DNA from: a virus
IMG/VR virus record: IMGVR_UViG_3300021077_000115
Span: 302,064-366,063 of that record
Length of the DNA: 64,000 bases
Direction: 5' to 3' (one strand)
Of this stretch, positions 21,745 through 43,049 are shown in pieces. A program made the translations under genes and the position numbers. Position 1 is the first letter of the stretch; each line of letters opens with the position of its first letter. The notes under the pieces are model-generated. The model did no database searches. It worked only from the letters and a program-made list of their open reading frames with translations, and was not told where the DNA came from.

Positions 21745-22557
21745 TTAAAGAATATCTTTGACAATATCAAATTTACGCCTCAAATACCTATCGGAATCTA
21801 TAATATCTGAATACAGCCAATTAGCAATCTGTCTGCATATGTTGTTTCCATTATATTGTAAAAGTGAAGTTCTCCATCCGTTCAAAGACTTTTCTAAACA
21901 TCTATCTGGTAAGCCTCCATACTCAACAAAGCAAGAATTCATTCCCCTTAAAAAATCTTCAGTACCTCTTGTAGAAAATACCATCTGCCCTTTGTGATTT
22001 GGTCTGGATTTAGCTTTGTGAATTGCCCAACATCCATCTCCGTCAAAATAACCACGACAAAAAGCAGATAACATATCTTGTTGTATATTTGGAAATTTTA
22101 GAATCTTTGTTTTCCTTGGTAAAATGCCAAACCTCTGTAAATCAACAACCATTTTTGGAGAACAAAAAGCAAATGAATAGCATACGGAATTTTCAGACTC
22201 AACACGTGTTAATTTGTGTTCTGATCCAAGGTCTTTTTTAAATAACCTTAAATGATCAATATCCTTTTCGGCTAATGCAAGCCTAACTTGATTCTTGAAA
22301 ACACACCCATCAGCAGCAATAAAACCAGCCCAATAACAAGATTTTAAAGTGTCATTTGAAAAGAAATCATGATTTACTGGCAGATTACCATGATTATTGG
22401 ACTTATAAACAATACCAAAACGCCTCATCATTGAGGATACAACGGCGTGTGAGGTATTATATTTTTCAGCTACTAACCTAAGAGAGCCTAATAATTCATA
22501 ATCATTCAACAAAGATATTTTGGTTATTTCTTGAGAATTTTCAAATCTAGCATTCAT
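21745..22557 (-). CDS. LAGLIDADG-family homing endonuclease, free-standing.
   Basis: Two LAGLIDADG-like motifs are present: WAGFIAADGCVF and RGYFDGDGCWAI. It sits between two fibre genes with 14- and 24-nt spacers and has no SD. Confidence 0.7.
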   Translation of the reverse strand: MNARFENSQEITKISLLNDYELLGSLRLVAEKYNTSHAVVSSMMRRFGIVYKSNNHGNLPVNHDFFSNDTLKSCYWAGFIAADGCVFKNQVRLALAEKDIDHLRLFKKDLGSEHKLTRVESENSVCYSFAFCSPKMVVDLQRFGILPRKTKILKFPNIQQDMLSAFCRGYFDGDGCWAIHKAKSRPNHKGQMVFSTRGTEDFLRGMNSCFVEYGGLPDRCLEKSLNGWRTSLLQYNGNNICRQIANWLYSDIIDSDRYLRRKFDIVKDIL

Positions 22558-22571
22558 AAAATAATACTGAA

Positions 22572-24665
22572 CTATTCCATGTTTGATAGTATTATTGTGT
22601 GCGAATGATTTAAAACGGTACCCACAATACCCGCCGAGATCGGGTGGTTGTGCCCACGATCTATACTTGTCATTTGATTTATTTGGGAAATATGCCTAAT
22701 CTTCTCATTAATGGTGATTCTATGCATATGGGCGGGTATGCCTCCAGGGCCCATTACCATTCCAATGGAAGTAAGAATCTCAGATGGAAGAGTACTAGTG
22801 TCACGAATTGAACGAACTTGATAAATAGGATCTGTCTTACGTACACGTACTGCGGTGAACTTCTGAGCACCTGACTCAAAAAGCATAGTCCTATTTCTAT
22901 CTACATCGATGATTTCATAACGCCATTCTTCAGTTCCATCTTGATTGAATCTGATTATAAAATCCCCATCCTTGACTGTTGGTGTCACCAACGTCCAACA
23001 ATTAGCAATATAGGTATTCTCAATACCTGCGTCTTCACGTTTGAAATCTTCCTTGGTTGGTCCAAAGCGAACCAAAATCTTGCCGTCACTTTCACGTGGA
23101 TTGAAATATTGTTCATATCCAGTTACCAAAGAAGTTCCATAAGTATCTATTCCGCGATACGTTGTATTTTCGCGTGTAGAGCTGGTATGCCGCGATTGCT
23201 TTCCTGACCATTGACGTCGAAACAAAACTACCCGCTCTCCAGTGACCTGAAGTAGATACTCCTCTCTCATATCCATGTGTTCTTGAACGCTCAACCCGCG
23301 TACGGACCCATCACATTCCGATCCATCGGCATACTCTCCACCAAAATAGGTTCCTACGCACTTTCCTGATAACCAATCTGGCAAGAATGTACGATCCCAA
23401 CCCGCTTGATCGTAGATTGGAAATCCGGCATTTGCAACATCTACAACATTGAGGTTGCCAGTTCCTGATAAGATATCTGTACGTTCCCGGAACCCATCTT
23501 TATTGGTTCTAGCATACTGCTCATCAAATCTGATGGTAACCATACCAATGGCCACATTAAGATCCTGCCAACCTTCCCAAAGGCGCACAAATGGATTGTC
23601 GTGATGATGTCGGTATCCGTCATATCCATCGATAGTATGCGGACGAGCACCGCTAGGGCCTCCATTAACCACATACCCATCAACATCCACTAGAAAGTAG
23701 TCCCCACGTTTGAATGGAATCGTTCCATTATTAATGGCAAAACTCAAAATACCATTAGAAACAATAACTCCATCAGGATTCCATATTACAGGATCTCCGT
23801 AGCCATCTAAAGCAGAGCCTGTTAGAGATCCAATCGCCCCAAACTTAGCATAGCCATCATTTTCAGAACCATCTAGCGAACAGAAAATCTTCCAATCTTG
23901 AATTATAGATTTTCCATCTATCAATTCCAAATTTGAAATATAGCCATTACCAACATTATTTCCAACACTATAACCATCTATATAAGATAGACTACTCAAA
24001 ATATCATCTGATAAATAACCACGTTGTAATCCAGATAGATTTGGGAAAATCAAATATTCTGGACAATGACAATGATGCTCACGACGTTCTGAGCAATGGC
24101 AATGATGTCCCTTATCGCAATGGTGCTCTTCTGAGCAATTGCATTTTGGCCTTAATGTTCCAACATCAACATGAGAATAGAATATTAGTTCGTGTCCAAT
24201 TTTGACAACTCCAATTGGCGGGAACCCGGCAACATCATTCAAATACATGATGTCATCGGTAGCTGTCATATTCTGAACCAAAACAGCTTCTGGGGCTATT
24301 TTAGATCCTGGATCGCCATCTAAGAGCTGATCGTATAGAAGCGTTCCGGATGCATATGCAGATCCCTTTACAGCAAAATAATAGGTTCTTCCAGGGCTAA
24401 ATGCATCAAAAATATTAAGGGACAGAAACTGATCTTTGGTATTCGGCCTAACTATTAGCTTTACGCCCTCATCATAAATCTTAGTCTGATTTGTAGACCA
24501 ATATATGTTGTAAAAAAGATCCCAATTACCAGGCTGCTTTTGCTGAATGTATTCCTTGTACCATTGAAGCGCAACAGTATACCCATCCCCACCACATACC
24601 ACTGTACGAACGCCATGGAGTGATGCGTCAAATGTACGCAGAAATACTGGAGGGTTGCATGCCAT
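22572..24665 (-). CDS. Tail fibre protein (697 aa) with a Cys/His cluster and C-terminal HxH motifs.
   Basis: Contains CNCSEEHHCDKGHHCHCSERREHHCHCPEY and a C-terminus ...RGHNHPISAGIVGTVLNHSHTI. It also carries the DGY domain paralogous to the sheath insertion. Confidence 0.6.
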   Translation of the reverse strand: MACNPPVFLRTFDASLHGVRTVVCGGDGYTVALQWYKEYIQQKQPGNWDLFYNIYWSTNQTKIYDEGVKLIVRPNTKDQFLSLNIFDAFSPGRTYYFAVKGSAYASGTLLYDQLLDGDPGSKIAPEAVLVQNMTATDDIMYLNDVAGFPPIGVVKIGHELIFYSHVDVGTLRPKCNCSEEHHCDKGHHCHCSERREHHCHCPEYLIFPNLSGLQRGYLSDDILSSLSYIDGYSVGNNVGNGYISNLELIDGKSIIQDWKIFCSLDGSENDGYAKFGAIGSLTGSALDGYGDPVIWNPDGVIVSNGILSFAINNGTIPFKRGDYFLVDVDGYVVNGGPSGARPHTIDGYDGYRHHHDNPFVRLWEGWQDLNVAIGMVTIRFDEQYARTNKDGFRERTDILSGTGNLNVVDVANAGFPIYDQAGWDRTFLPDWLSGKCVGTYFGGEYADGSECDGSVRGLSVQEHMDMREEYLLQVTGERVVLFRRQWSGKQSRHTSSTRENTTYRGIDTYGTSLVTGYEQYFNPRESDGKILVRFGPTKEDFKREDAGIENTYIANCWTLVTPTVKDGDFIIRFNQDGTEEWRYEIIDVDRNRTMLFESGAQKFTAVRVRKTDPIYQVRSIRDTSTLPSEILTSIGMVMGPGGIPAHMHRITINEKIRHISQINQMTSIDRGHNHPISAGIVGTVLNHSHTIILSNME

Positions 24666-24679
24666 AATTACATGCTGGA

Positions 24680-25327
24680 TTATCCTACAACATTAATATC
24701 AACGTTGAATAGGCTCGCTAATTCCAGCAGTTTTTCACGTCTCTCATCTCTTTTTTTATCATCATCTTTATCACGTGTATGATGATCGAGCACCTGATCT
24801 ACGTACTCCTCTGCCTCATCATCGCTTTTGGTATCAGAAATGTACTTAGTCTGATTGCGAAATCCTTCTTGTTCGGTAGGATTATCAAGATAATTATCGT
24901 CAGTTGAACCAGGAGTTGCCTTGCTACCAGTAGTTTGCTGGCAAACATGAGTCATCTCATGCGGAAGATAATGATCATTTTCCTTCATCTTTTCATCGAT
25001 ATGAAGCCTTTCATGTGCAAGGTAATTATCATCATCTCCGCCGGTAAACAGGTCAACGTTCAAATAGATGACACCATGATCTGTACGCGCCGAAACTGGA
25101 ATTTTGGCAACACAAATTGGCCACAAATCAAGCTCTTCTCTCTTGATATCATACTCCTTAAGCATGTCTTTGACTACATCGCTGTCAAAAACTCGCTTCT
25201 TGAGCTTATCAATAACAGGGGCCAGCTTCTTGTGTGGAAGGCCTTTGGTTACAATCTCTTCCGGCATAATAAAGTGCGGGAATATGCAGGGATTATTCCT
25301 GGATGAAATCCTCGTAGAAACTATCAC
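24680..25327 (-). CDS. Putative zinc metallohydrolase with two adjacent HExxH motifs and an acidic C-terminus.
   Basis: Contains NYLAHERLHIDEKMKENDHYLPHEMTHVCQQ, i.e. HERLH and HEMTH. The spacing recalls SprT/DUF45-type HExxH domains. Confidence 0.4.
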   Translation of the reverse strand: MIVSTRISSRNNPCIFPHFIMPEEIVTKGLPHKKLAPVIDKLKKRVFDSDVVKDMLKEYDIKREELDLWPICVAKIPVSARTDHGVIYLNVDLFTGGDDDNYLAHERLHIDEKMKENDHYLPHEMTHVCQQTTGSKATPGSTDDNYLDNPTEQEGFRNQTKYISDTKSDDEAEEYVDQVLDHHTRDKDDDKKRDERREKLLELASLFNVDINVVG

Positions 25328-25724
25328 TCTGCTTCAGATTACTTACCTGGGAATCCCAATTGTTCCATAATTCACGGGCAAGATTGGTAAAGTCATAAAA
25401 GTTTAAAACTCCAGGATTATAGCTAATGCCATTATCAGATATAGCTGGCCCTGGAATTTTGCTAGCTACCTCAGATGCTTTCTTGGCCAGCAACACATAA
25501 GCCGCATAAGTTACCAAGATGTCTGAAAGTTGGGCTACATTCTCCTCGTCTTCATCAAAAGAAAAATATGTTATAGCTGGTACCATATTGAACGCGCTCA
25601 GCGCTAATTGAAGAGCCAACCTAACATCATTGGTGTTGGTTTCATCACTATCAAGCCCAATACGAAATTTAACTACCTCTACAAGATTATCTAAAACTGA
25701 CATGCGAACCTCCAATGGGTTCAT
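25293..25724 (-). CDS. Hypothetical protein (143 aa).
   Basis: ORF with an ATG start in the co-oriented gene string. Confidence 0.45.
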   Translation of the reverse strand: MNPLEVRMSVLDNLVEVVKFRIGLDSDETNTNDVRLALQLALSAFNMVPAITYFSFDEDEENVAQLSDILVTYAAYVLLAKKASEVASKIPGPAISDNGISYNPGVLNFYDFTNLARELWNNWDSQVSNLKQSDSFYEDFIQE

Positions 25725-26035: not shown

Positions 26036-26947
26036 TTAGAATATTTGACGTTCGCGGAGATGGCGTAAACGGCGCACTTGAGGACTTGCACCACCAACGA
26101 ATGATAGGGTTCCAAGACCGAGGGGTGAGGGTTTCATGTTGTGCTTAATCAACTTACATTTTTCGTACCAAGCATCCATTTCACTTTTGTACTGAGTATT
26201 CAAAAGCTCTGCCTGTTGTGGTGGTGTAAATCCAATACCATTATCATTGATAGTGAACTCTCTACCACGCTCAATCAGAGCCTGGGCACCTAAAGCCAAA
26301 TACAACGATCCTTGAACCAAAATGTCATGGAATTGCTCAATAATTGGAGTATCATCCCAAGTGAATAGGGTAAAATGAGGTATCTCGTTGAACATGGTAA
26401 GAGATTCGCAGATAAAGGCTACCAATTCATCAACTGTAAATACATCGCAATCCTTGTAAATTGGATTGCCATGCTCATCCATTCTACGCGCCTTGCCACG
26501 AGCCTTGAGCCTTGCCCTTAGTGATTTCACTACATTGTTGATGTTACAGATGGCAATTTGACTAAAATTAAAGCCTGGGTCATCTCCTAGTTTATGTAAC
26601 CCATCAGTATTGAGTCCTGGAAGCTGGGAGTTGAATGTAGTGAATGTATATTCACCAAGTATATTATATTCCTGATAGAGGCCACTCCAAGCATCTCTCC
26701 AAGTTCCAACTGGGGGATAAAGACCAACACAGTAATTGAATTGATATGTACCTACACCAATTCTCATGACGCCAGAACTGGTTGGACCAACAGCAACGCC
26801 ACCACTAGGCTGAATAACCGTGACAGTTGGAAAGCTGTCCAAGTCAACAGGAGATCCATCAATAGCGAATTTAGCCGCAAGAGCTACAATGTCATTTGGT
26901 TGTATAATCTCTGAGCGAGGAAGAGTGGCCATACTTCTATGCGCCAT
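26036..26947 (-). CDS. Hypothetical structural or assembly protein (303 aa). Its central segment is duplicated in 32211..32594.
   Basis: DVFTVDELVAFICESLTMFNEIPHFTLFTWDDTPIIEQFHD here aligns with DVYTTDQLVEFANQALSRFNSILPFTNFAWDDTAFLEKHYSD in the other ORF. Confidence 0.5.
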   Translation of the reverse strand: MAHRSMATLPRSEIIQPNDIVALAAKFAIDGSPVDLDSFPTVTVIQPSGGVAVGPTSSGVMRIGVGTYQFNYCVGLYPPVGTWRDAWSGLYQEYNILGEYTFTTFNSQLPGLNTDGLHKLGDDPGFNFSQIAICNINNVVKSLRARLKARGKARRMDEHGNPIYKDCDVFTVDELVAFICESLTMFNEIPHFTLFTWDDTPIIEQFHDILVQGSLYLALGAQALIERGREFTINDNGIGFTPPQQAELLNTQYKSEMDAWYEKCKLIKHNMKPSPLGLGTLSFVGGASPQVRRLRHLRERQIF

Positions 26948-26968: not shown

Positions 26969-29900
26969 TCAATACAGCGAGCTAAGTCCAGTATATAGTT
27001 CGGTTGCTTCGCCAAGCACATCAGCTTGTGTTGGAGTTTTAATCATCAATCGTCGTACAGACATATCTCCAGTTGATTGGCCACCAAAATGTCCAGCATT
27101 TATATATAAACGATCTACGCCAATTAAAGTACCTCCGAAATCATTCACTATAGATGTTCCTGATGGATCAATTTTCCAACAATGAGTGCCATCAGCAGCA
27201 TAAACAGCATATTGTAGGGTAGTGTCTGCTACAATTGTATTTCCTATAACAGTTTCAACGCTGCCTCCTTGGCCATAACGGATAGCTAATAGAGTAGTAC
27301 CGCTTTGCGCCAACGTAAAGCTCTGAGCAATACCAGAATCAATCTGGCCTAAATAAATTGTATTCCCAGCTTCTGTAACACCAGTCCACCACATAATACC
27401 AATTATAAATGGTGGTGTACTGCTTCCGCCATATACTCCCCAATGATAGCCATCAATCAAACTAAGAATCTTACCAGGAGCCATTGTAGCTATGCGTCGG
27501 CCTCCAACAGGATCTGTTGTCATTTGAGGTGTGCTAGTAGCAGTAAGCACCGCAGTGCCCTCACGACTTGCCCATGATGTAATCGTGGTACCAGTCAATG
27601 ATACCCCATGTTCCATATCCCAATAACCACCAGTACTCCACGTTCCACGTTGTGGCAGATCCGGTTCAATGATAGCAAGTCGTGCTGATTGTTGATGCCT
27701 GACACGCCAAGCCTCTCGACCAATTTCAACACATTGAGGTGCTGAATAATGTATCTGCCACAGCGTGCGATCTCCACCATCCAATCGCGTTAGATATGTA
27801 CCAGGAACTGTTGCGGCAACCTGATCTTGTGCTGCGCGTACTGCATCAGAACTCATGTATGTCACAGTTGGTGTTGTGGTATTCGGGCCTAACCATTCAT
27901 TCAGACGATGAATTCCGAATTGAATATTCGCACCATATAATCCACGAATCCACGAAATAAGGGCAGTCAAATCTGCGGCATAGGTAGCGGCAAGTGTACC
28001 AATTGTATTTGCCTCTGCTTCTCCCTGGATCCATAGAGCGTCCGTGAACTCATATAGACTAGTACCAAGTGCAGCGAGTGCACCGGCCACAGTAGCCGGC
28101 AAATATACATAATCTGCACCGCTTGGCAACCAAGAAGTAATGGGTGTGCCGCCATGCCCACAATTAATTACAATAGCAGGAATATTATTTTTAACTGCCT
28201 CTGCCTGCCAACCTGTTCGTATGCCGGAGCCACTAGGGCCTGAAATTGGATCTGTATCCCATCCAGTCGTTGTAAGATATCCGCCATTGTCTCCTAGATA
28301 AAATGCATATCCAGGACGAGCTAGTATACCATTACCAACTAGTGTATTAGCGCCTGCCTTGATTGATACCGCGTTACTCTGACCAAAAACCAATGTAATT
28401 GGCCATTGTGTAGGTAAGTAAGCCATTGCACGCAACTCAGTACATGATACAGTTAATTGTGGAACTGTCCACGCTGATCCGAAATGCTCTGCCAAATTTT
28501 CAACAACTGATCTTGCATTACCACCAAACAGCGTTCTGCTCGTGAAAGTTGCCGTAGTTGATGTGGCCATCACTCCACCAGCCGCCAAAGTTCCATCAAT
28601 ATATAAGGAGACTGAACTTGGGCCCGCAACAAGCTGCAGACATACCGGGACTGGTGCAACTGGTTGGGTTGTTAATTGAGTGACAGTGGCTCCGGCATCA
28701 TTGGTTCGAGTGATAGACCAGACTCCAGTTGGATCGACACTCACTGCAAGACGGCTTGTCGTGCCATTGAGTGAGTATACCTGTCGCGCAGTACTAGTTG
28801 GGCTATGCTCTCGAACCCAAATACACATTTCGATTGTAGCTAATGTACAAGATGGTATTGAGTAGGTTAGAGCACATGAATTACCATATCCTTCAACAAG
28901 TGCCGAATGACCAAACCAAATATCAGGTGAGAGTACAGGGCAGTAGCCATCAGTCCCCTGGGCCAGGATTAAATCAGTACTACCACGAGCAGGAGTAATA
29001 TAGGATACTTTATCTTGTTGTAAATGCACATTAGATACTGTAATTACTGGGCCAGTTAGAGGAAATCTAGATGCGCCTCTGGTGCCTATATCACACAACT
29101 GCCCTTCAGCAACATTAACTGGAATAAGATTCGTTTCATAAATAACGTCAATCCATCCATCAGTTCTCGCACTAAAGCTGTATCCATTATGATATCCAGA
29201 TGGAGTTGTTAATTCATAAATTGTATAAGAAGTATCGCTACTTGGATATCTTAAACTTTGCAATGAAGGCAATTCAATAAATTGTGTAGATGAAAATTCA
29301 AAAAATAGATGTTTTGCGTCGTATTCAGCTCCCGGTAAATACGAGAATGTAGCCCGTATCCAGCCAACGCTAGCTAGATTTCCCGGAGCAAGTCTAGCAA
29401 GACGACTACTGGTACCTGATTCAGTCAATGCAGATGCACGCGGAATTCCATCTTTATCAAATAAACTATTGACCGCAGTAAGCCCAGTCAATGTCCACGT
29501 GCCAGCAACTGGATTATTTCCAGACAGCGGCTTAATCTGAACCGTCTGCGTCTGAGAAAAATCAAAGAGCGTTGATGTGTACTCAGCTAGAGTGGCAATG
29601 GGCGGTGGGCCTTGCCATTCTGCCTCTGTTGCACTTATAGCAGTCAAAACTTGCCCAGGAGTTGGTGCCGCTGAGGCAGATATAGAAACTACCGTAGTAG
29701 CAGTCTGTAATCCAGTAGCGTATTGAGCCACACCAATTGGTGTATGTACATGAGACGCATTAGTATTATCCTGTAGATATAGAGTTACAACGGTTGTGCC
29801 GCTTCCGCCAATTTTTATAGCTTTATATTTGATTACCAATCTATCTGTTGATGTTACAGGGAACATTCCTTCGAACGGATTTGAATTATATAAAGTAGAC

Positions 29901-30472
29901 GTATTACCAGTAATAATTGGTGTTGTTGTAGAAAATAAATAAGTATCGATATTACTAAGGTTACGAGAATATCCATCAATTTCTACAACTACATATCCAT
30001 CATTATTATCGACGCTTATAAAAGTATCAAATGCCCATTCTCCCTGTTGCACAAAAGGCTCTCCAATTGGTACTTCTGAAACGAACGTACCAAGGACTAC
30101 CGTTTGTCCAGAAGATATTGGTGACTTTAGAGTAATTTCAGAGCCAGGAGTATATTGACTAGTTGGAGTTAGCTGATAACCATCAGGCAACGCATACCCA
30201 TCAAGATAGAATACCTCTCCTGCTGCAATGCTTGGAACTGGTGTCTGCCATTGAGCAGATGTGCCATTTATAGCCGTTACAACTTGTCCAACGGTTGGCG
30301 CTGTCGCTGAAGAAACCGAAACTACGGTAGATGATGTTCTGATTCCGGAGGAAATCCGATCATTTGAAAGGCGAGAGTCGTTTTGTGAAACATAACCATC
30401 CGACATACTATCAAGTTTGGCGCTATCTTCAACGGTCATGAATCCAAAATCATCAGTGAATTTCTTTAACAT
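26969..30472 (-). CDS. Long tail fibre protein (1167 aa) with an internal ~40-aa protein repeat and an N-terminal anchor domain shared with the broken tailspike.
   Basis: The N-terminus FTDDFGFMTVEDSAKLDSMSDGYVSQNDS aligns with 41547..41873. The internal repeat is TSSTVVSVSSATAPTVGQVVTAI... versus TATTVVSISASAAPTPGQVLTAI.... Confidence 0.6.
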   Translation of the reverse strand: MLKKFTDDFGFMTVEDSAKLDSMSDGYVSQNDSRLSNDRISSGIRTSSTVVSVSSATAPTVGQVVTAINGTSAQWQTPVPSIAAGEVFYLDGYALPDGYQLTPTSQYTPGSEITLKSPISSGQTVVLGTFVSEVPIGEPFVQQGEWAFDTFISVDNNDGYVVVEIDGYSRNLSNIDTYLFSTTTPIITGNTSTLYNSNPFEGMFPVTSTDRLVIKYKAIKIGGSGTTVVTLYLQDNTNASHVHTPIGVAQYATGLQTATTVVSISASAAPTPGQVLTAISATEAEWQGPPPIATLAEYTSTLFDFSQTQTVQIKPLSGNNPVAGTWTLTGLTAVNSLFDKDGIPRASALTESGTSSRLARLAPGNLASVGWIRATFSYLPGAEYDAKHLFFEFSSTQFIELPSLQSLRYPSSDTSYTIYELTTPSGYHNGYSFSARTDGWIDVIYETNLIPVNVAEGQLCDIGTRGASRFPLTGPVITVSNVHLQQDKVSYITPARGSTDLILAQGTDGYCPVLSPDIWFGHSALVEGYGNSCALTYSIPSCTLATIEMCIWVREHSPTSTARQVYSLNGTTSRLAVSVDPTGVWSITRTNDAGATVTQLTTQPVAPVPVCLQLVAGPSSVSLYIDGTLAAGGVMATSTTATFTSRTLFGGNARSVVENLAEHFGSAWTVPQLTVSCTELRAMAYLPTQWPITLVFGQSNAVSIKAGANTLVGNGILARPGYAFYLGDNGGYLTTTGWDTDPISGPSGSGIRTGWQAEAVKNNIPAIVINCGHGGTPITSWLPSGADYVYLPATVAGALAALGTSLYEFTDALWIQGEAEANTIGTLAATYAADLTALISWIRGLYGANIQFGIHRLNEWLGPNTTTPTVTYMSSDAVRAAQDQVAATVPGTYLTRLDGGDRTLWQIHYSAPQCVEIGREAWRVRHQQSARLAIIEPDLPQRGTWSTGGYWDMEHGVSLTGTTITSWASREGTAVLTATSTPQMTTDPVGGRRIATMAPGKILSLIDGYHWGVYGGSSTPPFIIGIMWWTGVTEAGNTIYLGQIDSGIAQSFTLAQSGTTLLAIRYGQGGSVETVIGNTIVADTTLQYAVYAADGTHCWKIDPSGTSIVNDFGGTLIGVDRLYINAGHFGGQSTGDMSVRRLMIKTPTQADVLGEATELYTGLSSLY

Positions 30473-30483
30473 GTTTATCCTAT

Positions 30484-31389
30484 TTAGACGGGACTAACCG
30501 AAGTAACACCAAATGGCCTTGATGCATTGATTGCATATGTTTCCCATTTGAATTTATATTCATTAAATGAGCTTTGTCCGCTGTTCCATGTCCAAGCAAT
30601 AATAGATTCATCGTATGAACTTGTACTCGCAAAAGCAAATTGTGTTGTTGTCTGAGATCCAGGGACAATGGTTATTTCACCAATAGAACCAATAGAGGTC
30701 TCTCGGCTAAATGTGATTACAGCATCCTCTGGTAACCCTCCGGGAGGAGTTACTAACACGTAACCGTCAACCAGCGTGGCATATCCAAAACCAACATCAC
30801 TGCGTACTTCAACATCCTTTTCTGTCCAAGAAACAGAAGCTATGTATGTTCCAATCGCTGGGACACCATTAGGTATACACAGCCCATGTATATATAATCC
30901 TGTGCCTATTCGAGTCATTAGCCTTGGATAATGAACGGCCTTTGAAAGGTCTGGAAATATTACTTGCTGAACAACTGGAACATAATATCCATCATTTGGC
31001 CCACGATGATTAACGTGAAAACAATCGTGATGATGACGGCGATGATGGTCATGACAATGATAACCATCAAAACAACTATCATGATCAAAATGATTATGAT
31101 AGTTGTGGTTATTCCACCATCTGTGCCATTCGTGACGATCTGTGGTGTGTCTTACACATGCCGTCCATAAATGATGGTGATGATGATGGTTAGAATATCC
31201 ATCATATCCATCTGGATAGTATCCATCCGGTGGATCTGAATAATATCCGTCTGGCAGAAGATAGCCATAGCCATCTAGCCAATTTCCATAGCCGTCCAAA
31301 TCAGCAGGGTATCCGTTACTATCTAGCACTTGAACTATCAAACGAACCGTCTGTCCAGTATTAGCAAATATGTAATTTACAGAACCCAT
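30484..31389 (-). CDS. His-rich tail fibre protein with DGY repeats and a roughly 70-aa tract containing about 25 His residues.
   Basis: Contains LDGYGNWLDGYGYLLPDGYYSDPPDGYYPDGYDGYSNHHHHHHLWTACVRHTTDRHEWHRWWNNHNYHNHFDHDSCFDGYHCHDHHRRHHHDCFHVNHRGP. Confidence 0.55.
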   Translation of the reverse strand: MGSVNYIFANTGQTVRLIVQVLDSNGYPADLDGYGNWLDGYGYLLPDGYYSDPPDGYYPDGYDGYSNHHHHHHLWTACVRHTTDRHEWHRWWNNHNYHNHFDHDSCFDGYHCHDHHRRHHHDCFHVNHRGPNDGYYVPVVQQVIFPDLSKAVHYPRLMTRIGTGLYIHGLCIPNGVPAIGTYIASVSWTEKDVEVRSDVGFGYATLVDGYVLVTPPGGLPEDAVITFSRETSIGSIGEITIVPGSQTTTQFAFASTSSYDESIIAWTWNSGQSSFNEYKFKWETYAINASRPFGVTSVSPV

Positions 31390-31403: not shown

Positions 31404-31970
31404 TTATTCGTCGTCAATATTTTTCTTGAAAATAGGATCTACGGCCAAAATCGGAGCACGATCTGCCGCATCCATATCTGCATTTTCTGCGGCAAAATCT
31501 TCAGCAGACCCCTCATCCATATCCAAATCAGGAAACTCAACTTGTTCAATCTCTGGTGGTTTCCTAACAGTACGAGTTGAACCCATATCCAAAACATGAG
31601 CCACTTCAATCTTCTTGGTAAATATCTGGGGCGCTACAGACCTAATCTTGATATGCTGTCCTTTCTTGTAAATTGAACCGCTTTGAATGCTATCATCAAT
31701 CTGCTTTTTTGTGATATTATACATGGATAAGCCATTTTTCTTTTTAGCAAGCAAATTTAAGCTTTGCCCACGGCGAACTGTAATGGCTAGATCACTAATT
31801 GTAATATCTTGAAAACGATTTATATTCGTAACCCAAAGCTCTTCCGGCTTGGCTAGAGGATAAAACCTTTCCTGCAATCTCTGGCTACTACTTTTCAACT
31901 TTATCCTCAGATACAATGGCACAATCGCAGACGGTTGTGCTGTCAGCTTCGCTGACAACAGATACTTCAA
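31404..31970 (-). CDS. Hypothetical protein. The listed start overlaps the csp gene by 83 nt, so the true start is probably internal.
   Basis: ORF from the track. A candidate TTG start exists at about 31877. Confidence 0.4.
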   Translation of the reverse strand: MKYLLSAKLTAQPSAIVPLYLRIKLKSSSQRLQERFYPLAKPEELWVTNINRFQDITISDLAITVRRGQSLNLLAKKKNGLSMYNITKKQIDDSIQSGSIYKKGQHIKIRSVAPQIFTKKIEVAHVLDMGSTRTVRKPPEIEQVEFPDLDMDEGSAEDFAAENADMDAADRAPILAVDPIFKKNIDDE

Positions 31971-32166
31971 TCGCCTTTGGTTGCTTTCGATTATTCAAAC
32001 CAACAGAGAATATGACCTCTTGACCTTTCTTCAAAGTCTTGAAACCTTCGGTGATAATGTCAGACCAATGTATAAATAAATCGGCTTCATCTACTCTGGA
32101 GATAAATCCGTAACCAAGCTTGGCATCAAACCAAACAACCTTTCCAACATACTTTTCTTCTTGCAT
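31888..32166 (-). CDS. csp: Cold-shock domain protein of the CspA family (92 aa).
   Basis: GKVVWFDAKLGYGFISR matches the RNP1-containing CSD signature (GxVKWFNxxKGFGFI), and the size is 92 aa. Confidence 0.8.
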   Translation of the reverse strand: MQEEKYVGKVVWFDAKLGYGFISRVDEADLFIHWSDIITEGFKTLKKGQEVIFSVGLNNRKQPKAIEVSVVSEADSTTVCDCAIVSEDKVEK

Positions 32167-32210
32167 AATCTTCCTCTTAGCAGGTATAACCTGCGGCTTT
32201 CAGAATTATG

Positions 32211-32594
32211 CTAATATATTGCCTTCTTTTTGAGACCAATCTTAATTTCCAAAATCTCTCGCATTAGCAGACATGCAGCAAATTCTGCCAAATCACTATA
32301 ATGTTTCTCAAGAAAAGCCGTATCGTCCCATGCGAAATTGGTAAAGGGCAGAATAGAATTGAATCTAGAAAGTGCTTGATTGGCAAATTCCACCAATTGG
32401 TCTGTTGTATACACGTCATATTCACGATGACATGTATCTAGTCTCAATTTAATCAGCTTCAGAACAATATTGATATTGTTAATGGCTACTTGACTATAAT
32501 CATCAATCATATTAATCCACCCGAACCATTCCCTTATGTTGATCAATGGCTTCTTGATATCCGGTATCTGGTGGCAAAACACCAACGCCATCAA
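32211..32594 (-). CDS. Truncated paralogue of the central region of 26036..26947. The true start is probably the ATG at 32510 (MIDDYSQ...).
   Basis: Homology as described for 26036..26947. The sequence TAAtATG at 32508-32514 couples the internal ATG to the upstream stop. Confidence 0.45.
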   Translation of the reverse strand: MMALVFCHQIPDIKKPLINIREWFGWINMIDDYSQVAINNINIVLKLIKLRLDTCHREYDVYTTDQLVEFANQALSRFNSILPFTNFAWDDTAFLEKHYSDLAEFAACLLMREILEIKIGLKKKAIY

Positions 32595-32805
32595 CTACCA
32601 AACCACCTACACAACCAATGGTCTTATGAATTTCTGCTATTCCCAGGGCAGCGATTTGATGACGCTCAAGATCAGACTTCGCTCCCTTAGCTGCATTCTG
32701 AAACTTCTCAAGAAGCTTCCTTACTTTATCTTCGCAGCCTTGCTGACGCGCCAACTGCAAAATGATTCTGATAGTCTCTCGCTCTGATTGAATTCTTCTT
32801 GTCAT
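32512..32805 (-). CDS. Hypothetical small protein (97 aa).
   Basis: ORF coupled to the HNH stop by ATGA. Confidence 0.4.
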   Translation of the reverse strand: MTRRIQSERETIRIILQLARQQGCEDKVRKLLEKFQNAAKGAKSDLERHQIAALGIAEIHKTIGCVGGLVVDGVGVLPPDTGYQEAIDQHKGMVRVD

Positions 32806-33260
32806 AAAAATACCTTCATTGATTCAGCTTTGGATTTGAAAGGAGGGTTGGCCAAACCAGGGATATTGCTTTTACCATTCTCTTCATATACCAATGTACG
32901 TTTATATGGCAATTTAGTAGATGGAAAAATTCCAATGATCTTGATCTGCGGAGGGGCTGCGTGAATTAGATTATGACAATTACTACAGATGATTGCGATA
33001 TTCATCTCGTGATTGCTAGTATCCGGGTCCGTCCGCTCTACAATATGATGCTTGTGAAGAACAGCTGTATTATTCTCTTCACATATCTCACATACACTAG
33101 GAACCAGCCTTACTTTCTTACGCCTTCCCATATTATGTGAATATATCAGGCTTTGGACAATATTTAACGATGGCCTGAGCTGCAACTCTAGCCTCTCTAT
33201 CTCCGTAATCTCCCCATTGGGAAATTCGAATATTGTCCTGAGAACTTCCACCATAACCAA
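32802..33260 (-). CDS. Compact HNH endonuclease. The true start is probably the ATG at about 33131 (MGRRKKVRL...), giving about 109 aa.
   Basis: Contains CEICEENNTAVLHKHHIVERTD...NHEMNIAIICSNCHNLIH, i.e. a CxxC...HH...N...CxxC HNH core. The listed start overlaps the cysteine desulfurase gene by 128 nt. Confidence 0.65.
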   Translation of the reverse strand: MVMVEVLRTIFEFPNGEITEIERLELQLRPSLNIVQSLIYSHNMGRRKKVRLVPSVCEICEENNTAVLHKHHIVERTDPDTSNHEMNIAIICSNCHNLIHAAPPQIKIIGIFPSTKLPYKRTLVYEENGKSNIPGLANPPFKSKAESMKVFL

Positions 33261-34221
33261 GCGCCGTCATGATTGGATTCGTATTTGAGTGCAAAGATCC
33301 ACAAGCAGAACCAAGGCCCACAAATATTCCTTCAGCTTCCAATTGAGCCATTACATGTGGACCCATCTTTTTCCCGATGTTCAAGAAAGTAGCATGTGGA
33401 ACTCTAGTTGAATTCTCGCCAATTATTTCAATACCAATTGAACTTACTGCTGATTCAATTATAGAGCGAAATGTCAATGCCCTATGATATCTTGGCTGTA
33501 ATGTCTTGATAGCTTCTTCTAATGCCACAGAAGCGGCTATAATCATTCCAGCATCAGGTGTTCCTGGCCGATCAAAGTAATATCTACTTCCAGTCCCAAA
33601 TTCTCTCCACCATTTATTATCTCTTATATATAAGAAACCAACATTTACAGGACCACCAAATTTATGAGCCCCAAATGCAGCTATCATCAAATTTGGTATA
33701 CTAGAAACATTAACTGGAATCTTACCAAGTGATTGGCTCATATCACAAAAGAATGGAACCTTAATGTTCTCTATATCTTGTATTGTGCCAGTTTCATTCT
33801 GTACATGAATACATATAAAAGCAGACTTTTCAGGAGGTGTAAATGTACAAGCTACAATTCCGTCTTTATTTACAAATAAATCATTGTTACCAAAGAGTTC
33901 TCTAGCTTTTATTGCCACTGATTTATGTTCGATTGTAGAACAGTATACATTCTTGAAATTCTGTTCGCGTAGAAGTTCCAGGCCCCATTCGCAGGCTTGA
34001 GTGCAGGACGAAGTAAATATGATTTGATTGGGATTTTCTGCGCCGATCAATTTGGCAATTTTGGTTCTAGCTGCCTCAATTTCAGAAGCTGCTTGCCGTC
34101 CTGGCATTGAAATTGACATAGCATGGCCATGTCCCCCAATGGACTTATTGAAGTTTATGTATGCTTCAAGAGCTTTTGGATGAAGTGGAATATGAGCATT
34201 CGAGTCAAGAAATAATTGCAT
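33133..34221 (-). CDS. PLP-dependent cysteine desulfurase of the class-V aminotransferase family (NifS/IscS/DndA-like).
   Basis: AAFGAHKFGGPVNVGF carries the PLP-lysine HK motif. GLGSACGS resembles the SxxxS/active-Cys loop. Length is about 360 aa and the N-terminus is class-V aminotransferase-like. Confidence 0.75.
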   Translation of the reverse strand: MQLFLDSNAHIPLHPKALEAYINFNKSIGGHGHAMSISMPGRQAASEIEAARTKIAKLIGAENPNQIIFTSSCTQACEWGLELLREQNFKNVYCSTIEHKSVAIKARELFGNNDLFVNKDGIVACTFTPPEKSAFICIHVQNETGTIQDIENIKVPFFCDMSQSLGKIPVNVSSIPNLMIAAFGAHKFGGPVNVGFLYIRDNKWWREFGTGSRYYFDRPGTPDAGMIIAASVALEEAIKTLQPRYHRALTFRSIIESAVSSIGIEIIGENSTRVPHATFLNIGKKMGPHVMAQLEAEGIFVGLGSACGSLHSNTNPIMTALGYGGSSQDNIRISQWGDYGDREARVAAQAIVKYCPKPDIFT

Positions 34222-34241
34222 TAATAGTCTATATATCCCGA

Positions 34242-34754
34242 TTATACGGTGACTTCTTGAATCATTATGCTGGCATGTTCATTAACGGTAGCAACTGGAC
34301 GACATTGAGCTGTATTGGTTGCCGTTCTCCATTGAAGAAGAATGGTATGCGCTCCTGCAGCTAATCCTGTTTTCCTATATACAATAGAAGCCACATTTGG
34401 TTGATTTGCTGCCGATGGACGAAGACCCGCTCCACGAACAGCAGCAGCATCAATATTAAGTTGTATATCCATATTTATATTAGGATTTGTATTACTAATA
34501 CTTGCAGAAACTTCAATAAGTAAAACAGATCCTGCCGAAATAGTAATGGATTGAGTAAGTAACGTAACAAAAGCAGCTGAGCCTGTTGTTGTATTTGTGG
34601 CTTGTTCAGTAAATGTGCTTTGAAGTAATGTAGCTAATTGGATGGGAGTTTTAAATTCCCAACCGTCATTGGTAGCATTGCGTTTTAATATAGCATTAGC
34701 CACCCCTGCAGGTACGACCTCTGTATTAGTACAATAAAGAGCATGATCTGACAT
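34242..34754 (-). CDS. Short fibre-like protein (170 aa) sharing an N-terminal domain with 34809..36437.
   Basis: VPAGVANAILKRNATNDGWEFKTP aligns with FPVNVGRGILRRNTTNDGWEQKSP. Confidence 0.5.
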   Translation of the reverse strand: MSDHALYCTNTEVVPAGVANAILKRNATNDGWEFKTPIQLATLLQSTFTEQATNTTTGSAAFVTLLTQSITISAGSVLLIEVSASISNTNPNINMDIQLNIDAAAVRGAGLRPSAANQPNVASIVYRKTGLAAGAHTILLQWRTATNTAQCRPVATVNEHASIMIQEVTV

Positions 34755-34808
34755 AATTTACCTTGTAAAGTTTAATTTATTGCTGAAGATTAATTTTTCT
34801 CGACTATA

Positions 34809-36437
34809 TTATGGAGCAATAACTACACTTCCTTGGGCTCTCCAAGCAATCGTAGTACCTACCACACCGGTAACGTTGATATTGACTGCCGTGCCAGTGA
34901 TGGTGAATGTTGCATCTACTGTAAAACCAGTATCAGCCACAGTAGCTTCTACTTTAGTTGTTCCAACCTGAGTTACAGTTCCACCAGCTCTTCGGAAACC
35001 ACCGAAAAGTTTGAATGATCCAGAAGCAGTACCATCTGATTTTCTAGCAGTAATCAAGACACTCAAAGTAACCGCATGCAAATCTGAGGGGGTATAAGCA
35101 GTTATATCAAATGGAGTAGCATTCGTGGTTGTGGTAGTTACATTAAATGTATCTCCGGCGATATTATCCAACTTGGCTTTATCGGTAGAGATCATGAATC
35201 CATTAACACTCTGCGTAACCGCTGCGTGAATGGTTCCACCACCTCTGGTGCCGTGTTGAGCATCAGTAGCTAGAATGCCAACCTGAATGTCATCTGGATT
35301 GATGATAATAGATCCATCGGCATTAGCCACGGCATTGAGGGTGATATTACCACTTAGGGTACCACCACCAGTGAGACCTGACCCGGCTCCAACTGTTGTA
35401 GTTGTTGGTACGGCACTAGCTGGCAAACCTGAAAGCTTTGTGAACTCAGCTGATGACATAAATCCGTTATTGGATCCATCGGCTAGATTGTGAGCCAAAC
35501 CACCTTGGCTTCCAGCCGGTTGTTGCCCATGGCTATGAACATGAGCTGCGTCTGAGAATCTTCCTGTTGTCCCTGCCGCATCAGTAGTTCCTACATCTTG
35601 AACATCAGAAAGCAAACCAGGAACAACACCACTAGCTGCCGCCGTTGATGAAACTTTCCCCAAACCAAAAGCTATTGGAACTGTAGCTAAAGTACCTACA
35701 ATTGCTACATATAATGAAACATTTGTTAGAGATGTTGTTGGAGTAAACGAAACAGGAAATCCATCTGATGTTCTTCTGTAATAGAACCACAATCTCCATT
35801 TTAGATTAGCTCCAAGATCAGATCTATAGCTAAGAACTCCATAAACTTCCTGAGCATCCTGTCCAACAGGTATCGGACTAAGTACATCTGAGACCTGAGC
35901 TAAAGTACCATCAGATGTAGCAACTTGAACTGTAACACCATGCTGACCTGGAAAATCAGTTGGATTGTAAGGTTGGGTTATGGCTGGAGTAGATCCAAGT
36001 CCACCTTGTCCAGTTCCGGTTCCTGTTTCAGCTGCAGCACTAGCAAAAGAAGGCGCAACGACCCCAAGAATACCTGAACCAGCAATTGATCCGCCCGGAG
36101 ATTGACCAACAAATAGAGCGTCTGCAAGTGATAGTGGTTCACTAGTTCCAGTGGTTTGAGTTTCAGTGATTAGTGTGTAAGCCGCACGAAGTACCGAACT
36201 AACACCAACACTATCGGCATAAGAAGTAGTGGCCGCATCAGATGATCCTGGGCTTGGCGAAGCAACATTAACAATCTTCTGGCCATTAATATCAATGCTT
36301 GAAGCAGCATCATTAAGAATGGTTTCTGGAGACTTCTGTTCCCAGCCATCATTGGTAGTATTGCGCCTTAAAATTCCACGTCCGACATTGACTGGAAATT
36401 CCTCTTTACCTGGACCATATTGTGCAAAACTAGACAT
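34809..36437 (-). CDS. Tail fibre protein (542 aa), Gly/Thr/Ala/Ser-rich.
   Basis: Shares the N-terminal domain described above. Composition is beta-rich and low-complexity. Confidence 0.55.
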   Translation of the reverse strand: MSSFAQYGPGKEEFPVNVGRGILRRNTTNDGWEQKSPETILNDAASSIDINGQKIVNVASPSPGSSDAATTSYADSVGVSSVLRAAYTLITETQTTGTSEPLSLADALFVGQSPGGSIAGSGILGVVAPSFASAAAETGTGTGQGGLGSTPAITQPYNPTDFPGQHGVTVQVATSDGTLAQVSDVLSPIPVGQDAQEVYGVLSYRSDLGANLKWRLWFYYRRTSDGFPVSFTPTTSLTNVSLYVAIVGTLATVPIAFGLGKVSSTAAASGVVPGLLSDVQDVGTTDAAGTTGRFSDAAHVHSHGQQPAGSQGGLAHNLADGSNNGFMSSAEFTKLSGLPASAVPTTTTVGAGSGLTGGGTLSGNITLNAVANADGSIIINPDDIQVGILATDAQHGTRGGGTIHAAVTQSVNGFMISTDKAKLDNIAGDTFNVTTTTTNATPFDITAYTPSDLHAVTLSVLITARKSDGTASGSFKLFGGFRRAGGTVTQVGTTKVEATVADTGFTVDATFTITGTAVNINVTGVVGTTIAWRAQGSVVIAP

Positions 36438-36448
36438 TTGATACTCCT

Positions 36449-38400
<1,952 letters not shown>

Positions 38401-38790
38401 TTACGTTCCTATATGCCAAATATGAACGTCTACAGTACCAATACCAGCAAAATATATCTCATTCTCTCCTCTTGGTCCAAAGTCAAGAGTTTGCCCAGAG
38501 CTAATACGCCCATGGATATTGTAACCAGAGAAAGAATATATTACGTCTGTTCCGCTAACACCAACCAACATTATTCTACGAGCCCCGCGAAAAGCTGTAC
38601 GAACTTGAGGTGTTATTGGGAAAAGCGGATAGTAACCGTCATAGCCATCATAAGGTGTTCCTATCGGCGCAACATATCCATCACCCCATGTACCACTTGT
38701 TACAGATGTGTTTGTACTTACGACCTTAAAAAAATTGTAATCCTTTCCTGTATTAACTGGCTTGCCCATTATAACCTCAAATACATACAA
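38401..38790 (-). CDS. Small DGY-rich fibre-associated protein. The probable true start is the ATG at 38769, preceded by GAGGT.
   Basis: Contains GDGYVAPIGTPYDGYDGYYPL. The SD reads tttGAGGTtataATG. Confidence 0.45.
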   Translation of the reverse strand: MYVFEVIMGKPVNTGKDYNFFKVVSTNTSVTSGTWGDGYVAPIGTPYDGYDGYYPLFPITPQVRTAFRGARRIMLVGVSGTDVIYSFSGYNIHGRISSGQTLDFGPRGENEIYFAGIGTVDVHIWHIGT

Positions 38791-42002: not shown

Positions 42003-43049
42003 TTATCCGACGATTGTTGACTTGCGAGAAGCAGCAACGGCGCGTGGGTTCACGATACCGATACCAATCTCTTCCGACACAACCCATCCTAGTTTTAACT
42101 GTTTTGGTTCATCAGCTGGGATAACTTCGATGTCCTGACGGATTGGAAGCACACCAACGAACTCTGGGTCAGAGGCACCGTAGACTGTTCCTGGTGGAAC
42201 GATCTTCGAAACCATAATGTCAGCGCCCCAGATGTGAGCATACAGACCTGTCTGAAGAATCTCACGCTGCGTAACTGGATCAATTTCACCAGCCGAGGTT
42301 CCGGAAGATGCCCAGTTAAGGATGTCCGTAAACTCATTGATGTTCATGAAGTACTTCGTTGTTACAAGGTCCCAACGATCAATCTGAACCTTGATCTCAA
42401 CCAAGTCTCTCTTCAACAGACCGCTGTCTGTGATGTCCTGCAACGTGTTTTCAACACTCGATGCTGCGTCGATAGCCGCAAAGATGTTTGCATCTTCTTG
42501 AGCCATCAATTCTTGACGGGCCTTTTGAACGGCACGGTCAATAACGTTGAATCGACGACGACGAACCTCAGAGATACGAACTGTTGGGTTCGAATAAAGC
42601 TCGAACGTTGGCACAACGATACGATCACCGAACACACGAGACTCACCACCGGTACCATTGCTGGAAATGACGGTAGCTGCTACGTCAATATCACGCTCAT
42701 ACTTCGGGTCAACGCCTTGTGGAAGAGGATCAACCACCAACAGACGACGGGCAATTCCCTGATAATCCAAGTTACGACGAATTGGGTTCGCCATAGCCTG
42801 AGCAAGAGCAAGCTTTCCTTCCTGTGTCATAATCGCACGAGCAATAAGCTCATCGCGCTTTTCGTCATTCAAACCTGGTTGGCCCGAAAGAGCCATATTT
42901 GAAGGCTGGCCCTCTTCGAGGATCGCAGCGTACTTAACTAGCGTATTCAATGCATCCTTTACGGATGTGGCATTCATACCACCACGGGTATCAAATAAAG
43001 ACATATATAATCTCCTAATGTTTGTTTGTAAGCTGCCAAAATCCATCAA
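42003..43049 (-). CDS. Putative major capsid protein (348 aa). The track start is TTG at 43049 and ATG is the second codon (43046..43044).
   Basis: A GC-rich hairpin lies upstream and a strong intrinsic terminator downstream, consistent with a highly expressed gene. Size and composition fit a small HK97-fold coat protein, and it follows a decoration-like gene (lambda-like D/E order). No diagnostic motif was recognised. Confidence 0.45.
   Translation of the reverse strand: MMDFGSLQTNIRRLYMSLFDTRGGMNATSVKDALNTLVKYAAILEEGQPSNMALSGQPGLNDEKRDELIARAIMTQEGKLALAQAMANPIRRNLDYQGIARRLLVVDPLPQGVDPKYERDIDVAATVISSNGTGGESRVFGDRIVVPTFELYSNPTVRISEVRRRRFNVIDRAVQKARQELMAQEDANIFAAIDAASSVENTLQDITDSGLLKRDLVEIKVQIDRWDLVTTKYFMNINEFTDILNWASSGTSAGEIDPVTQREILQTGLYAHIWGADIMVSKIVPPGTVYGASDPEFVGVLPIRQDIEVIPADEPKQLKLGWVVSEEIGIGIVNPRAVAASRKSTIVG

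Follow-up and report, generated by a model that had tools for sequence, protein, structure and literature searches.

Cysteine desulfurases are the entry point for nearly all biological sulfur trafficking, and the route of the sulfur is usually read from neighbouring partner genes. What does such an enzyme do in a giant phage, and how does its gene come to lie among genes for fibre-like proteins? The question is raised by a 64,000-nucleotide stretch of the IMG/VR virus record IMGVR_UViG_3300021077_000115 (positions 302,064 to 366,063; the window, meaning the full 64 kb), all genes of which are on the minus strand. The original prediction, made from the sequence alone, had described an accessory island in a tail-fibre block: a class-V cysteine desulfurase dependent on pyridoxal phosphate (PLP), an HNH endonuclease, two small open reading frames (ORFs) and a CspA-type cold-shock protein. 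All of these ORFs were present on the minus strand, and the fibre-like surroundings were borne out by neighbours with collagen repeats and a SASA-esterase domain. In gene order the block reads desulfurase, HNH, w97, a 99-aa ORF, the cold-shock domain (CSD) gene and w150, the last of which the original prediction lacked. Our analysis points to a divergent, phage-specific desulfurase subfamily that appears to be carried clade-wide with fixed orphan neighbours.

The desulfurase matched the Pfam family Aminotran_5 (PF00266) with an E-value of 3.6e-28 (99 bits at a cut-off of 21.5) and PHROG 12787, a family of unknown function. The best match in the PDB was 1ecx (3.9e-26), with IscS at about 1e-20, and the alignments with such type-I enzymes covered residues 1 to 334. 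SspA (6m4j, 1.8e-12) and DndA (3vax, 1.5e-11) matched much more weakly, and SufS-type matches covered the N-terminal half only, ending near residue 200 with PDB and NCBIfam entries alike. The likeness to NifS/IscS extended over the full length at about 25-29% identity (1ecx of Thermotoga maritima, 5zsp of Hydrogenimonas, 1p3w and 3lvj of Escherichia coli IscS), the phage enzyme being about 40 residues shorter at the C-terminus than E. coli IscS (362 vs 404 aa). NCBIfam models gave 132.7 bits for NifS (cut-off 530.75), 89-93 for IscS (304-643), 95.2 for DndA (480) and 54.2 for SufS (475); epsilon-NifS was second to NifS among the NCBI curated families with 113 bits. The family cut-offs of the curated desulfurase models ranged from 304 to 643 bits, and the phage enzyme stayed far below each. 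The choice of a subfamily, which the original prediction had left to hidden Markov model searches, was thus settled in part: the enzyme is type-I and NifS/IscS-like with NifS as the best match, but it passed the cut-off of no named subfamily. We place it, as far as profile scores can tell, outside every one of them, and its homology does not reveal its partner specificity.

Alignment to solved enzymes yielded a catalytic set of H99, D160, Q163, H186-K187, C307 and R332, in which H99 corresponds to the catalytic histidine, D160 and Q163 to PLP-binding residues, K187 to the Schiff-base lysine and C307 to the persulfide cysteine. K187 lies within GAHKF and is aligned to the lysine of SAHKF in 1ecx, C307 lies within GLGSACGS and R332 within a conserved RIS motif; the HK lysine and the SACGS loop on which the class-V assignment had been based were therefore both found. 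The entire set was invariant across 49 aligned homologues (45-84% identity) and was also retained in relatives of 33-35% identity. Within the family, strict conservation applies to lysine, arginine, histidine and cysteine (PMC8918507), and one known inactive paralogue binds pyridoxamine phosphate in place of PLP (PMC8918507). With the PLP lysine, the long-loop cysteine and the His, Asp, Gln and Arg residues in common with NifS/IscS, the same persulfide chemistry would be expected. We consider the product of the gene a type-I cysteine desulfurase, catalytically complete and apparently under selection; its activity is predicted from the family mechanism and the conserved residues.

The relatives of the locus are metagenomic and were labelled L001 onward. 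At an E-value of at most 1e-5 there were 866 desulfurase homologues; the best 120 of these 866 were all at least 45% identical and came from contigs of up to 454,833 bp. Synteny was followed in gene maps round six homologues, by tblastn and blastp with the window proteins and by an iterative profile search that yielded 79 IMG/VR loci. The order desulfurase, optional HNH, w97, CSD, w150 was seen in every locus of at least 35% identity with enough downstream sequence, that is, in about 26 non-identical loci, and it held down to desulfurases of 33-35% identity. Every related cassette contained the CSD gene. Behind w150 there was usually a gene for about 112 aa, the core of the 301-aa protein of the window (w301), and then one for 300 aa, the counterpart of w303. 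In L003 the identities to the window were 54% for the desulfurase, 54% for w97, 74% for CSD, 45% for w150 and 65% for w303. The cassette was also found in other settings. In L042 and L043 it stands directly behind a capsid-like gene and its downstream genes are unrelated to the usual ones; in the simplest relatives (L035, L042, L043) it follows the major capsid gene directly or past one small gene. L096 has a gene of the poly(A)-polymerase/CCA-enzyme family, an HD-domain gene, GNATs and a DNA methylase upstream, and two genes for about 770 aa are inserted ahead of w150. In L037 and L041 w150 is inverted with its adjacency kept.

Cellular-type homologues of the desulfurase (at most 31% identity) were never beside w97, CSD and w150. 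In a bacterial and archaeal set with one genome per species the matches did not exceed about 29% identity, except for a 2.8-kb contig and a 171-kb phage-like contig, two phage-like sequences that had been binned into metagenome-assembled genomes. The phage-type desulfurase was thus found essentially only on giant-phage contigs, and it was never seen without w97, CSD and w150.

These data do not agree with an accessory island. The GC content was 0.39 in two 1-kb windows spanning most of the block and 0.41 in a third, compared with 0.40-0.44 in the adjoining DNA, and no meaningful repeats were found to flank the block. None of the marks of a genomic island, i.e. patchy spread, compositional shift, flanking repeats and mobility genes at the borders, was observed. 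Because the same gene order is kept across related loci, the cassette is not a recent add-on; it appears to be a long-resident, vertically inherited part of the genome of an uncultured giant-phage clade. The original prediction is in this respect reversed: what varies from relative to relative are the surrounding fibre-like genes, and we read the cassette as stable backbone and the fibre-like genes on either side as the probable lineage-specific accessory part.

Judged by its capsid, the nearest cultured relative of the source is Bacillus phage G (497 kb). Because of the 53% identity of the capsid proteins and the length of the related contigs (446-463 kb), we assign the window to an uncultured giant-phage clade that would be distant kin of phage G. 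In the 48 kb around the head genes of phage G only the capsid and a protease were common with the window, and the cassette was not there. Among GenBank phages no close relative of the cassette region was found at the DNA level and no homologue of w150 or w303 at the protein level, phage G included. The desulfurase had matches of at most 30% identity in GenBank phages, most of them in records without annotation and perhaps of host origin, and none in phage G. As a side observation, the window encodes on the minus strand (55306-58767) a 1153-aa protein with a prohead-protease-like domain at about residues 108-250, where gp19 of phage G is 36% identical; this is unusually big for a head maturation protease.

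The gene borders of the cassette (Table 1) were taken from the minus strand read from 34300 to 31380 together with the gene calls on the near-identical contig L015. The genes are closely packed, with junctions in order of TAAtATG, ATGA and TAAtATG followed by spacers of 44, 10 and 14 nt. The HNH gene starts one base past the desulfurase stop; its true start is the ATG at 33131 (MGRRKK..., 109 aa) and not that of a 152-aa ORF overlapping the desulfurase. The start of w97 overlaps the HNH stop (ATGA), and it overlaps the desulfurase stop in loci without HNH. The sequence of w150 is identical to P0121. The whole window had no match in Rfam and no tRNA genes were found in it; between 25 and 39.9 kb no terminator-like sites were found on the coding strand.

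Table 1. Features of the cassette and of its surroundings, numbered from the first letter of the window
Feature	Position	Strand	Description
Desulfurase ("AT5")	34221-33133	-	362 aa; Pfam PF00266, PDB and NCBIfam matches
HNH	33131-32802	-	109 aa; Pfam HNH 23.7 bits vs cut-off 21.4; PHROG 144
w97	32805-32512	-	97 aa, helical, conserved; no known family
99-aa ORF	32510-32211	-	Start MIDDYSQ; partial paralogue of the 303-aa protein
CSD protein	32166-31888	-	92 aa, CspA family; Pfam CSD E 1.9e-19
w150	31877-31404	-	157 aa, TTG start; conserved gene
GATATATA motif	34230-34237	-	8 nt ahead of the desulfurase ATG; similar to an extended -10 element
GATATATT motif	33140-33147	-	8 nt ahead of the HNH ATG; same motif and spacing as at the desulfurase
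w301	30484-31389	-	Conserved downstream gene, enlarged in the window by a His-rich/DGY insert
SASA-esterase fibre-like gene	26969-30472	-	1167 aa; separates w301 from w303
w303	26036-26947	-	Conserved downstream gene, 303 aa
Four fibre-like genes	34242-38391	-	170, 542, 213 and 449 aa, the last collagen-like; between the EYSFNG gene and the desulfurase
Collagen-repeat protein	37042-38391	-	Fibre-like neighbour of the cassette
EYSFNG gene	38401-38790	-	Conserved, about 100 aa; no Pfam match
Major capsid protein	42003-43049	-	53% identical to gp27 of Bacillus phage G

The two motifs in Table 1 recurred in the relatives. In 26 non-identical loci [TG]ATATA[TA] was found at -20 to -12 ahead of 10 of 26 desulfurase genes and 7 of 19 HNH genes, compared with 9 of 305 other genes, an enrichment of about tenfold. 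A (T)GATATAT motif occupied equivalent positions in L006, L009, L012-L014, L024, L032, L035, L042, L043 and L096, and many relatives read TGATATAT, which is like an extended -10 element. The cassette may therefore be transcribed from a promoter of its own, with little or no leader, in which case the co-transcription with virion genes assumed in the original prediction is not established.

Next to the desulfurase the three small genes are the constant part of the cassette. None of the 40 homologues of w97 had a Pfam domain, and an AlphaFold2 model consisted of three helices and a hairpin with a predicted local distance difference test score (pLDDT) of 68. Cys65 was invariant among 26 close homologues, but in L012, L014, L042, L043, L096, L145 and L151 its place is taken by Ile or Phe, or the residue is lost. 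The idea of w97 as a persulfide carrier was dropped because Cys65 is missing in these distant relatives. The protein w150 has a beta-rich N-terminal domain with the motif W-I-T-N...S-x-N-L-L...G-S (pLDDT above 90 at residues 11-85) and a disordered, acidic tail with the conserved peptide FAAENADMDxADRAPxLAVDP. A profile search of 1.84 billion representative proteins returned 297 w150 proteins (clusters at 50% identity); the 150 listed of these 297 were all of 88-186 aa and contained no domain fusion. Neither w150 nor w97 has a cysteine conserved across all family members. For both, the PDB matches in profile searches were confined to noise and designed helical repeats, scans of the family members against Pfam gave nothing consistent, and no structural neighbour of the predicted folds was found. 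Comparison by hhalign with approximate sequences of ISD11, IscX and TusA revealed no similarity.

The CSD protein scored 69.7 bits at a Pfam cut-off of 27 and contains LGYGFI and LFIHWSDI as RNP1/RNP2-like motifs. By NCBIfam it was CspE/CspD-like, with scores under the equivalog cut-offs for CspA, CspE and CspD. This makes it a member of the CspA family outside the named orthologue groups.

Two members of the block turned out to be optional inserts and not parts of the cassette, as which the original prediction had counted them. The HNH gene was not in L013, L037, L040-L043 and L096, seven loci in which w97 overlaps or abuts the desulfurase stop, and a 52-aa remnant was left in L011/L026. Where present it was 46-85% identical in most loci and 38% in L012. 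The 109-aa product contains CEIC...HKHH...N...CSNCH with a CxxC...CxxC zinc motif and a conserved C-terminal extension, and is a putative HNH endonuclease. Like free-standing HNH homing endonucleases of phages it is small, sits at a gene junction with its own promoter-like motif, is patchy in distribution and has decayed in one lineage; it differs from them in being about as conserved as its neighbours and in the conserved C-terminal extension. It would be a secondary insertion of a resident homing type at the cassette junction and, because of this conservation and this extension, may be domesticated. The desulfurase/w97 junction also takes HNH_3-type endonucleases and proteins of 277-290, 154 and 117 aa. 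Separately, we observed a 250-290-aa protein between desulfurase and HNH (L029 8077-8910, L038 8079-8951, L155 7803-8558) with the motifs ...DGTDI(V/L)TG(E/D)PAS... and AWPE..EGGA; the copy in L029 had no Pfam match.

The second insert is the 99-aa ORF. That it is a truncated copy of w303 was confirmed: the two are 36% identical over 86 aa (E 1e-16), corresponding to residues 127-212 of the 303-aa product. Full-length copies occurred in close relatives only (L004/L010/L019, L009, L015), with a 72-aa fragment in L038, and we regard the ORF as a probable lineage-specific insert. A domain of about 90 aa (DELVAF...FN.IPHFT.F.WDD...) is common to this product, to w303 and to a 143-aa product of 25293-25724 on the minus strand.

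Some relatives carry the small genes without the desulfurase. A degenerate DNA pattern for FWITNISK of w150 identified 6 true loci besides 15 chance matches; two of the 6 were without the desulfurase. L145 (IMGVR_UViG_3300036715_004471, a 446-kb contig) has EYSFNG-HNH-w97-CSD with w150 inverted, and L151 (IMGVR_UViG_3300044797_000098, a 406-kb contig) has w97-CSD, again with w150 inverted. The opposite orientation of w150 and CSD was seen in L141, L145, L151 and L156 and, as in the inverted cassettes above, in L037 and L041. The genes of L145 are about as similar to those of desulfurase-bearing relatives as the latter are to one another, with its HNH being 58-62% identical to those of L014, L031 and L035. 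This similarity suggests that the desulfurase was lost in L145 rather than primitively absent.

Because neighbours usually disclose the route of the sulfur, the surroundings were searched for partners. A Pfam scan of the other 52 ORFs in the window returned only tyrosine-phosphatase families, LAGLIDADG, SASA, a second HNH and Latrotoxin_C, in line with the original statement that the partner enzymes are not in the window. The tyrosine-phosphatase domain matched Y_phosphatase2 at 2.5e-14 and also Tc-R-P and Y_phosphatase3; the E-value of Latrotoxin_C was 2.3e-4. Three further large genes beyond the low end of the window had no Pfam match. The Pfam matches listed for genes within ±10 kb in seven relatives included patatin, a PIF1-type helicase, homing endonucleases, an intein and a weak sulfotransferase. 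Neither the window nor these listed matches contained an IscU, NifU, SufE or SufU family as in ISC, NIF and SUF operons, or the PP-loop protein DndC/SspD or the ATPase DndD/SspC of Dnd and Ssp systems. A tRNA thiolation relay was likewise not seen nearby, with no PP-loop family among the Pfam matches of the window and no conserved relay cysteine in w97 or w150. Unlike NifS and IscS, the phage enzyme stands beside w97, CSD and w150 and not beside IscU, NifU or another known acceptor.

We consider it probable that the enzyme is a phage-specific auxiliary cysteine desulfurase whose Cys307 persulfide supplies acceptors elsewhere, for iron-sulfur cluster assembly and/or tRNA thiolation. By the mechanism of the IscS/NifS family, PLP bound to Lys187 would take L-cysteine, and Cys307, on a long and flexible loop, would abstract its sulfur to form a persulfide on the enzyme, with release of alanine. 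During infection the persulfide sulfur would pass to acceptors from the host or from another part of the phage genome. The protein w97, whose gene is translationally coupled to that of the desulfurase, would be the leading candidate for direct binding to the enzyme, while HNH and the 99-aa paralogue would be secondary insertions and the flanking fibre-like genes lineage-specific ones. Cysteine desulfurases have been reported earlier as viral auxiliary metabolic genes (PMC12911398). Those of phages of Patescibacteriota are likewise phage-borne, with an assumed support of cofactor and tRNA sulfur needs (PMC12911398); unlike these sporadic genes, the cassette described here is clade-wide and has fixed partner genes and a conserved upstream motif. 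The library of papers that was searched contained none found to describe this cassette or a desulfurase in giant phages.

Several results weigh against an auxiliary donor. No sulfur acceptor or thiolation enzyme (IscU, NifU, SufE, TusA, ThiI, MnmA, DndC, SspD) was found in the 64-kb window, and there was none among the Pfam matches listed for the ±10 kb of the seven relatives either; the destination of the sulfur is consequently a guess. The score of the enzyme is far under every curated subfamily cut-off, e.g. 133 vs 531 bits for NifS. The constant link to CSD and two orphan proteins is unexplained by a generic donor role. Finally, L145 and L151 keep w97-CSD-w150 with no desulfurase at the expected place despite ample flank. 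There the desulfurase is dispensable, or relocated, and because the three small genes are kept they have a desulfurase-independent role.

In a rival reading, desulfurase, w97, CSD and w150 would be a dedicated, undescribed system for sulfur transfer on nucleic acid, i.e. phage or host RNA, tRNA or single-stranded DNA. The nucleic acid would be bound by the CSD protein, perhaps together with the beta-domain of w150, and w97 would tether the desulfurase. Every phage-type desulfurase seen is linked to the three genes across three contexts, insertions and one inversion, w97 is translationally coupled to it where no HNH lies between, CSD is a nucleic-acid-binding fold, and the cassette of L096 is beside the gene of the poly(A)-polymerase/CCA-enzyme family. 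Yet an activating enzyme, such as an ATP-pyrophosphatase (PP-loop), is lacking from the cassette; w97 and w150, in which no cysteine is universally conserved for a persulfide relay, are assigned no function by homology and fold searches; and in L145 and L151 the trio w97-CSD-w150 is kept although the desulfurase is not there. Furthermore, the wider synteny is conserved in most of the clade, so that the linkage may in part be plain inheritance. We therefore hold a dedicated system to be unlikely, and we are similarly doubtful that the four proteins yield a thio-modification of nucleic acid or a sulfur-dependent step of head maturation without PP-loop or Dnd/Ssp machinery. Phosphorothioation of phage DNA was among the functions envisaged in the original prediction; the enzyme would then be a DndA/SspA-type donor and HNH the nickase. 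An HNH gene does adjoin the desulfurase, and the enzyme shares the superfamily and a weak homology with DndA (95 bits; 3vax) and SspA (6m4j). But these matches are no better than those to NifS and IscS, the DndA score being below the 133 bits of NifS and far from the DndA cut-off of 480. No DndBCDE- or SspBCD-like Pfam family, DndC/SspD and DndD/SspC included, was found in the window or among the listed ±10 kb matches, and HNH is missing from seven cassette lineages and truncated in another. Such a donor role is very improbable.

A capsid connection is suggested by the cassettes that follow the capsid gene in L035, L042 and L043. Family 2A encapsulins are capsid-fold shells with a cysteine desulfurase as cargo, which is SufS-type and carries a long N-terminal targeting domain. 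Their shell gene is beside the desulfurase gene as in the simplest phage relatives, and the conserved C-terminal peptide on the disordered, acidic tail of w150 might serve for targeting, so that the desulfurase would be loaded into the capsid or act on it. However, the phage enzyme has no targeting extension, neither N- nor C-terminal relative to NifS. It scored 21.7 bits at a cut-off of 800 with NCBIfam NF041166, which we take to be the model of the family 2A encapsulin cargo, and that cargo is SufS-type. The capsid protein matched no encapsulin family in Pfam, and the cassette of L096 is away from the head genes. We regard a cargo role as quite unlikely. Still less credible is a recently acquired mobile island with HNH as its mobility gene. 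The HNH gene within the block, the location among variable fibre-like genes and the abundance of homing endonucleases (LAGLIDADG, HNH_3, GIY-YIG) in these genomes would fit such an island, but the position is the same across relatives of 33-88% identity, the divergence resembles that of core neighbours (in L003 desulfurase 54%, w303 65%, CSD 74%), there is neither a GC shift nor a terminal repeat, and the one-genome-per-species set of bacteria and archaea contained no close cellular donor. The last proposal, that the enzyme serves the sulfur or metal-site assembly of Cys/His-rich fibre inserts, drew on His/Cys-rich stretches in the products of 30484-31389 and 22572-24665. Relatives whose versions (111-127 aa and about 530-552 aa) have no such inserts still carry the desulfurase, and this supply function has hardly any chance of being right. 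The auxiliary donor thus remains our preferred reading.

The flanks of the cassette show what has been added in the lineage of the window. The w301 of relatives is 111-127 aa long, and in several of them (L028, L030, L038) w303 is directly behind it without the 1167-aa gene; this SASA gene and the His-rich/DGY expansion of w301 are specific to the lineage of the window. In L030, L033, L035 and L041 a gene of the EYSFNG family is immediately upstream of the desulfurase. The EYSFNG protein has the motif EYSFNGNT(L/I)HG...IWFR...V.AW, its gene is as a rule flanked by the capsid gene and the cassette (besides the window in L013, L029, L030, L031, L033, L035, L041 and L145), and it may be a head component. 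Collagen repeats account for the PHROG tail-fibre matches of the window flank. The tripeptide DGY is repeated in the fibre-like products of 30484-31389, 22572-24665, 26969-30472, 36449-37090 and 37042-38391 on the minus strand, e.g. LDGYGNWLDGYGYLLPDGYYSDPPDGYYPDGYDGY. His or His/Cys-rich inserts were HHHHHH... in the 301-aa protein and CNCSEEHHCDKGHHCHCSERREHHCHCPE in a 697-aa protein; they are lacking in the shorter versions of both proteins in the relatives (111-127 aa; about 530-552 aa) and may be lineage-specific metal-binding modules.

A gene for a patatin-like phospholipase (297-332 aa) is just upstream of the desulfurase in L004, L012/L029, L013, L033 and L038, with none there in the window. 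A 270-aa LAGLIDADG-type protein (21745-22557, minus strand) has copies at differing positions in L001, L004, L006, L011 and L012, and the genomes of the clade also encode endonucleases of the HNH_3 and GIY-YIG types and have a gene with an intein. The activity of homing endonucleases appears to be very high in the clade.

What sets this locus apart is an intact-looking desulfurase that is fixed across a clade of phages of about 400-460 kb beside three small genes, two of them (w97 and w150) orphans, with the canonical acceptors not nearby. The chemistry of the enzyme is ordinary; the conserved partnership and the missing nearby acceptor are unexplained. If the four genes do not act together, the phage desulfurase would simply add to the known auxiliary metabolic genes, albeit with unusual age and stability. 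If they do, the cassette would represent a new viral route of sulfur relay. At the least, the locus would define a phage-specific desulfurase subfamily, and w97 and w150, the latter with its 297 clusters, offer concrete orphan targets.

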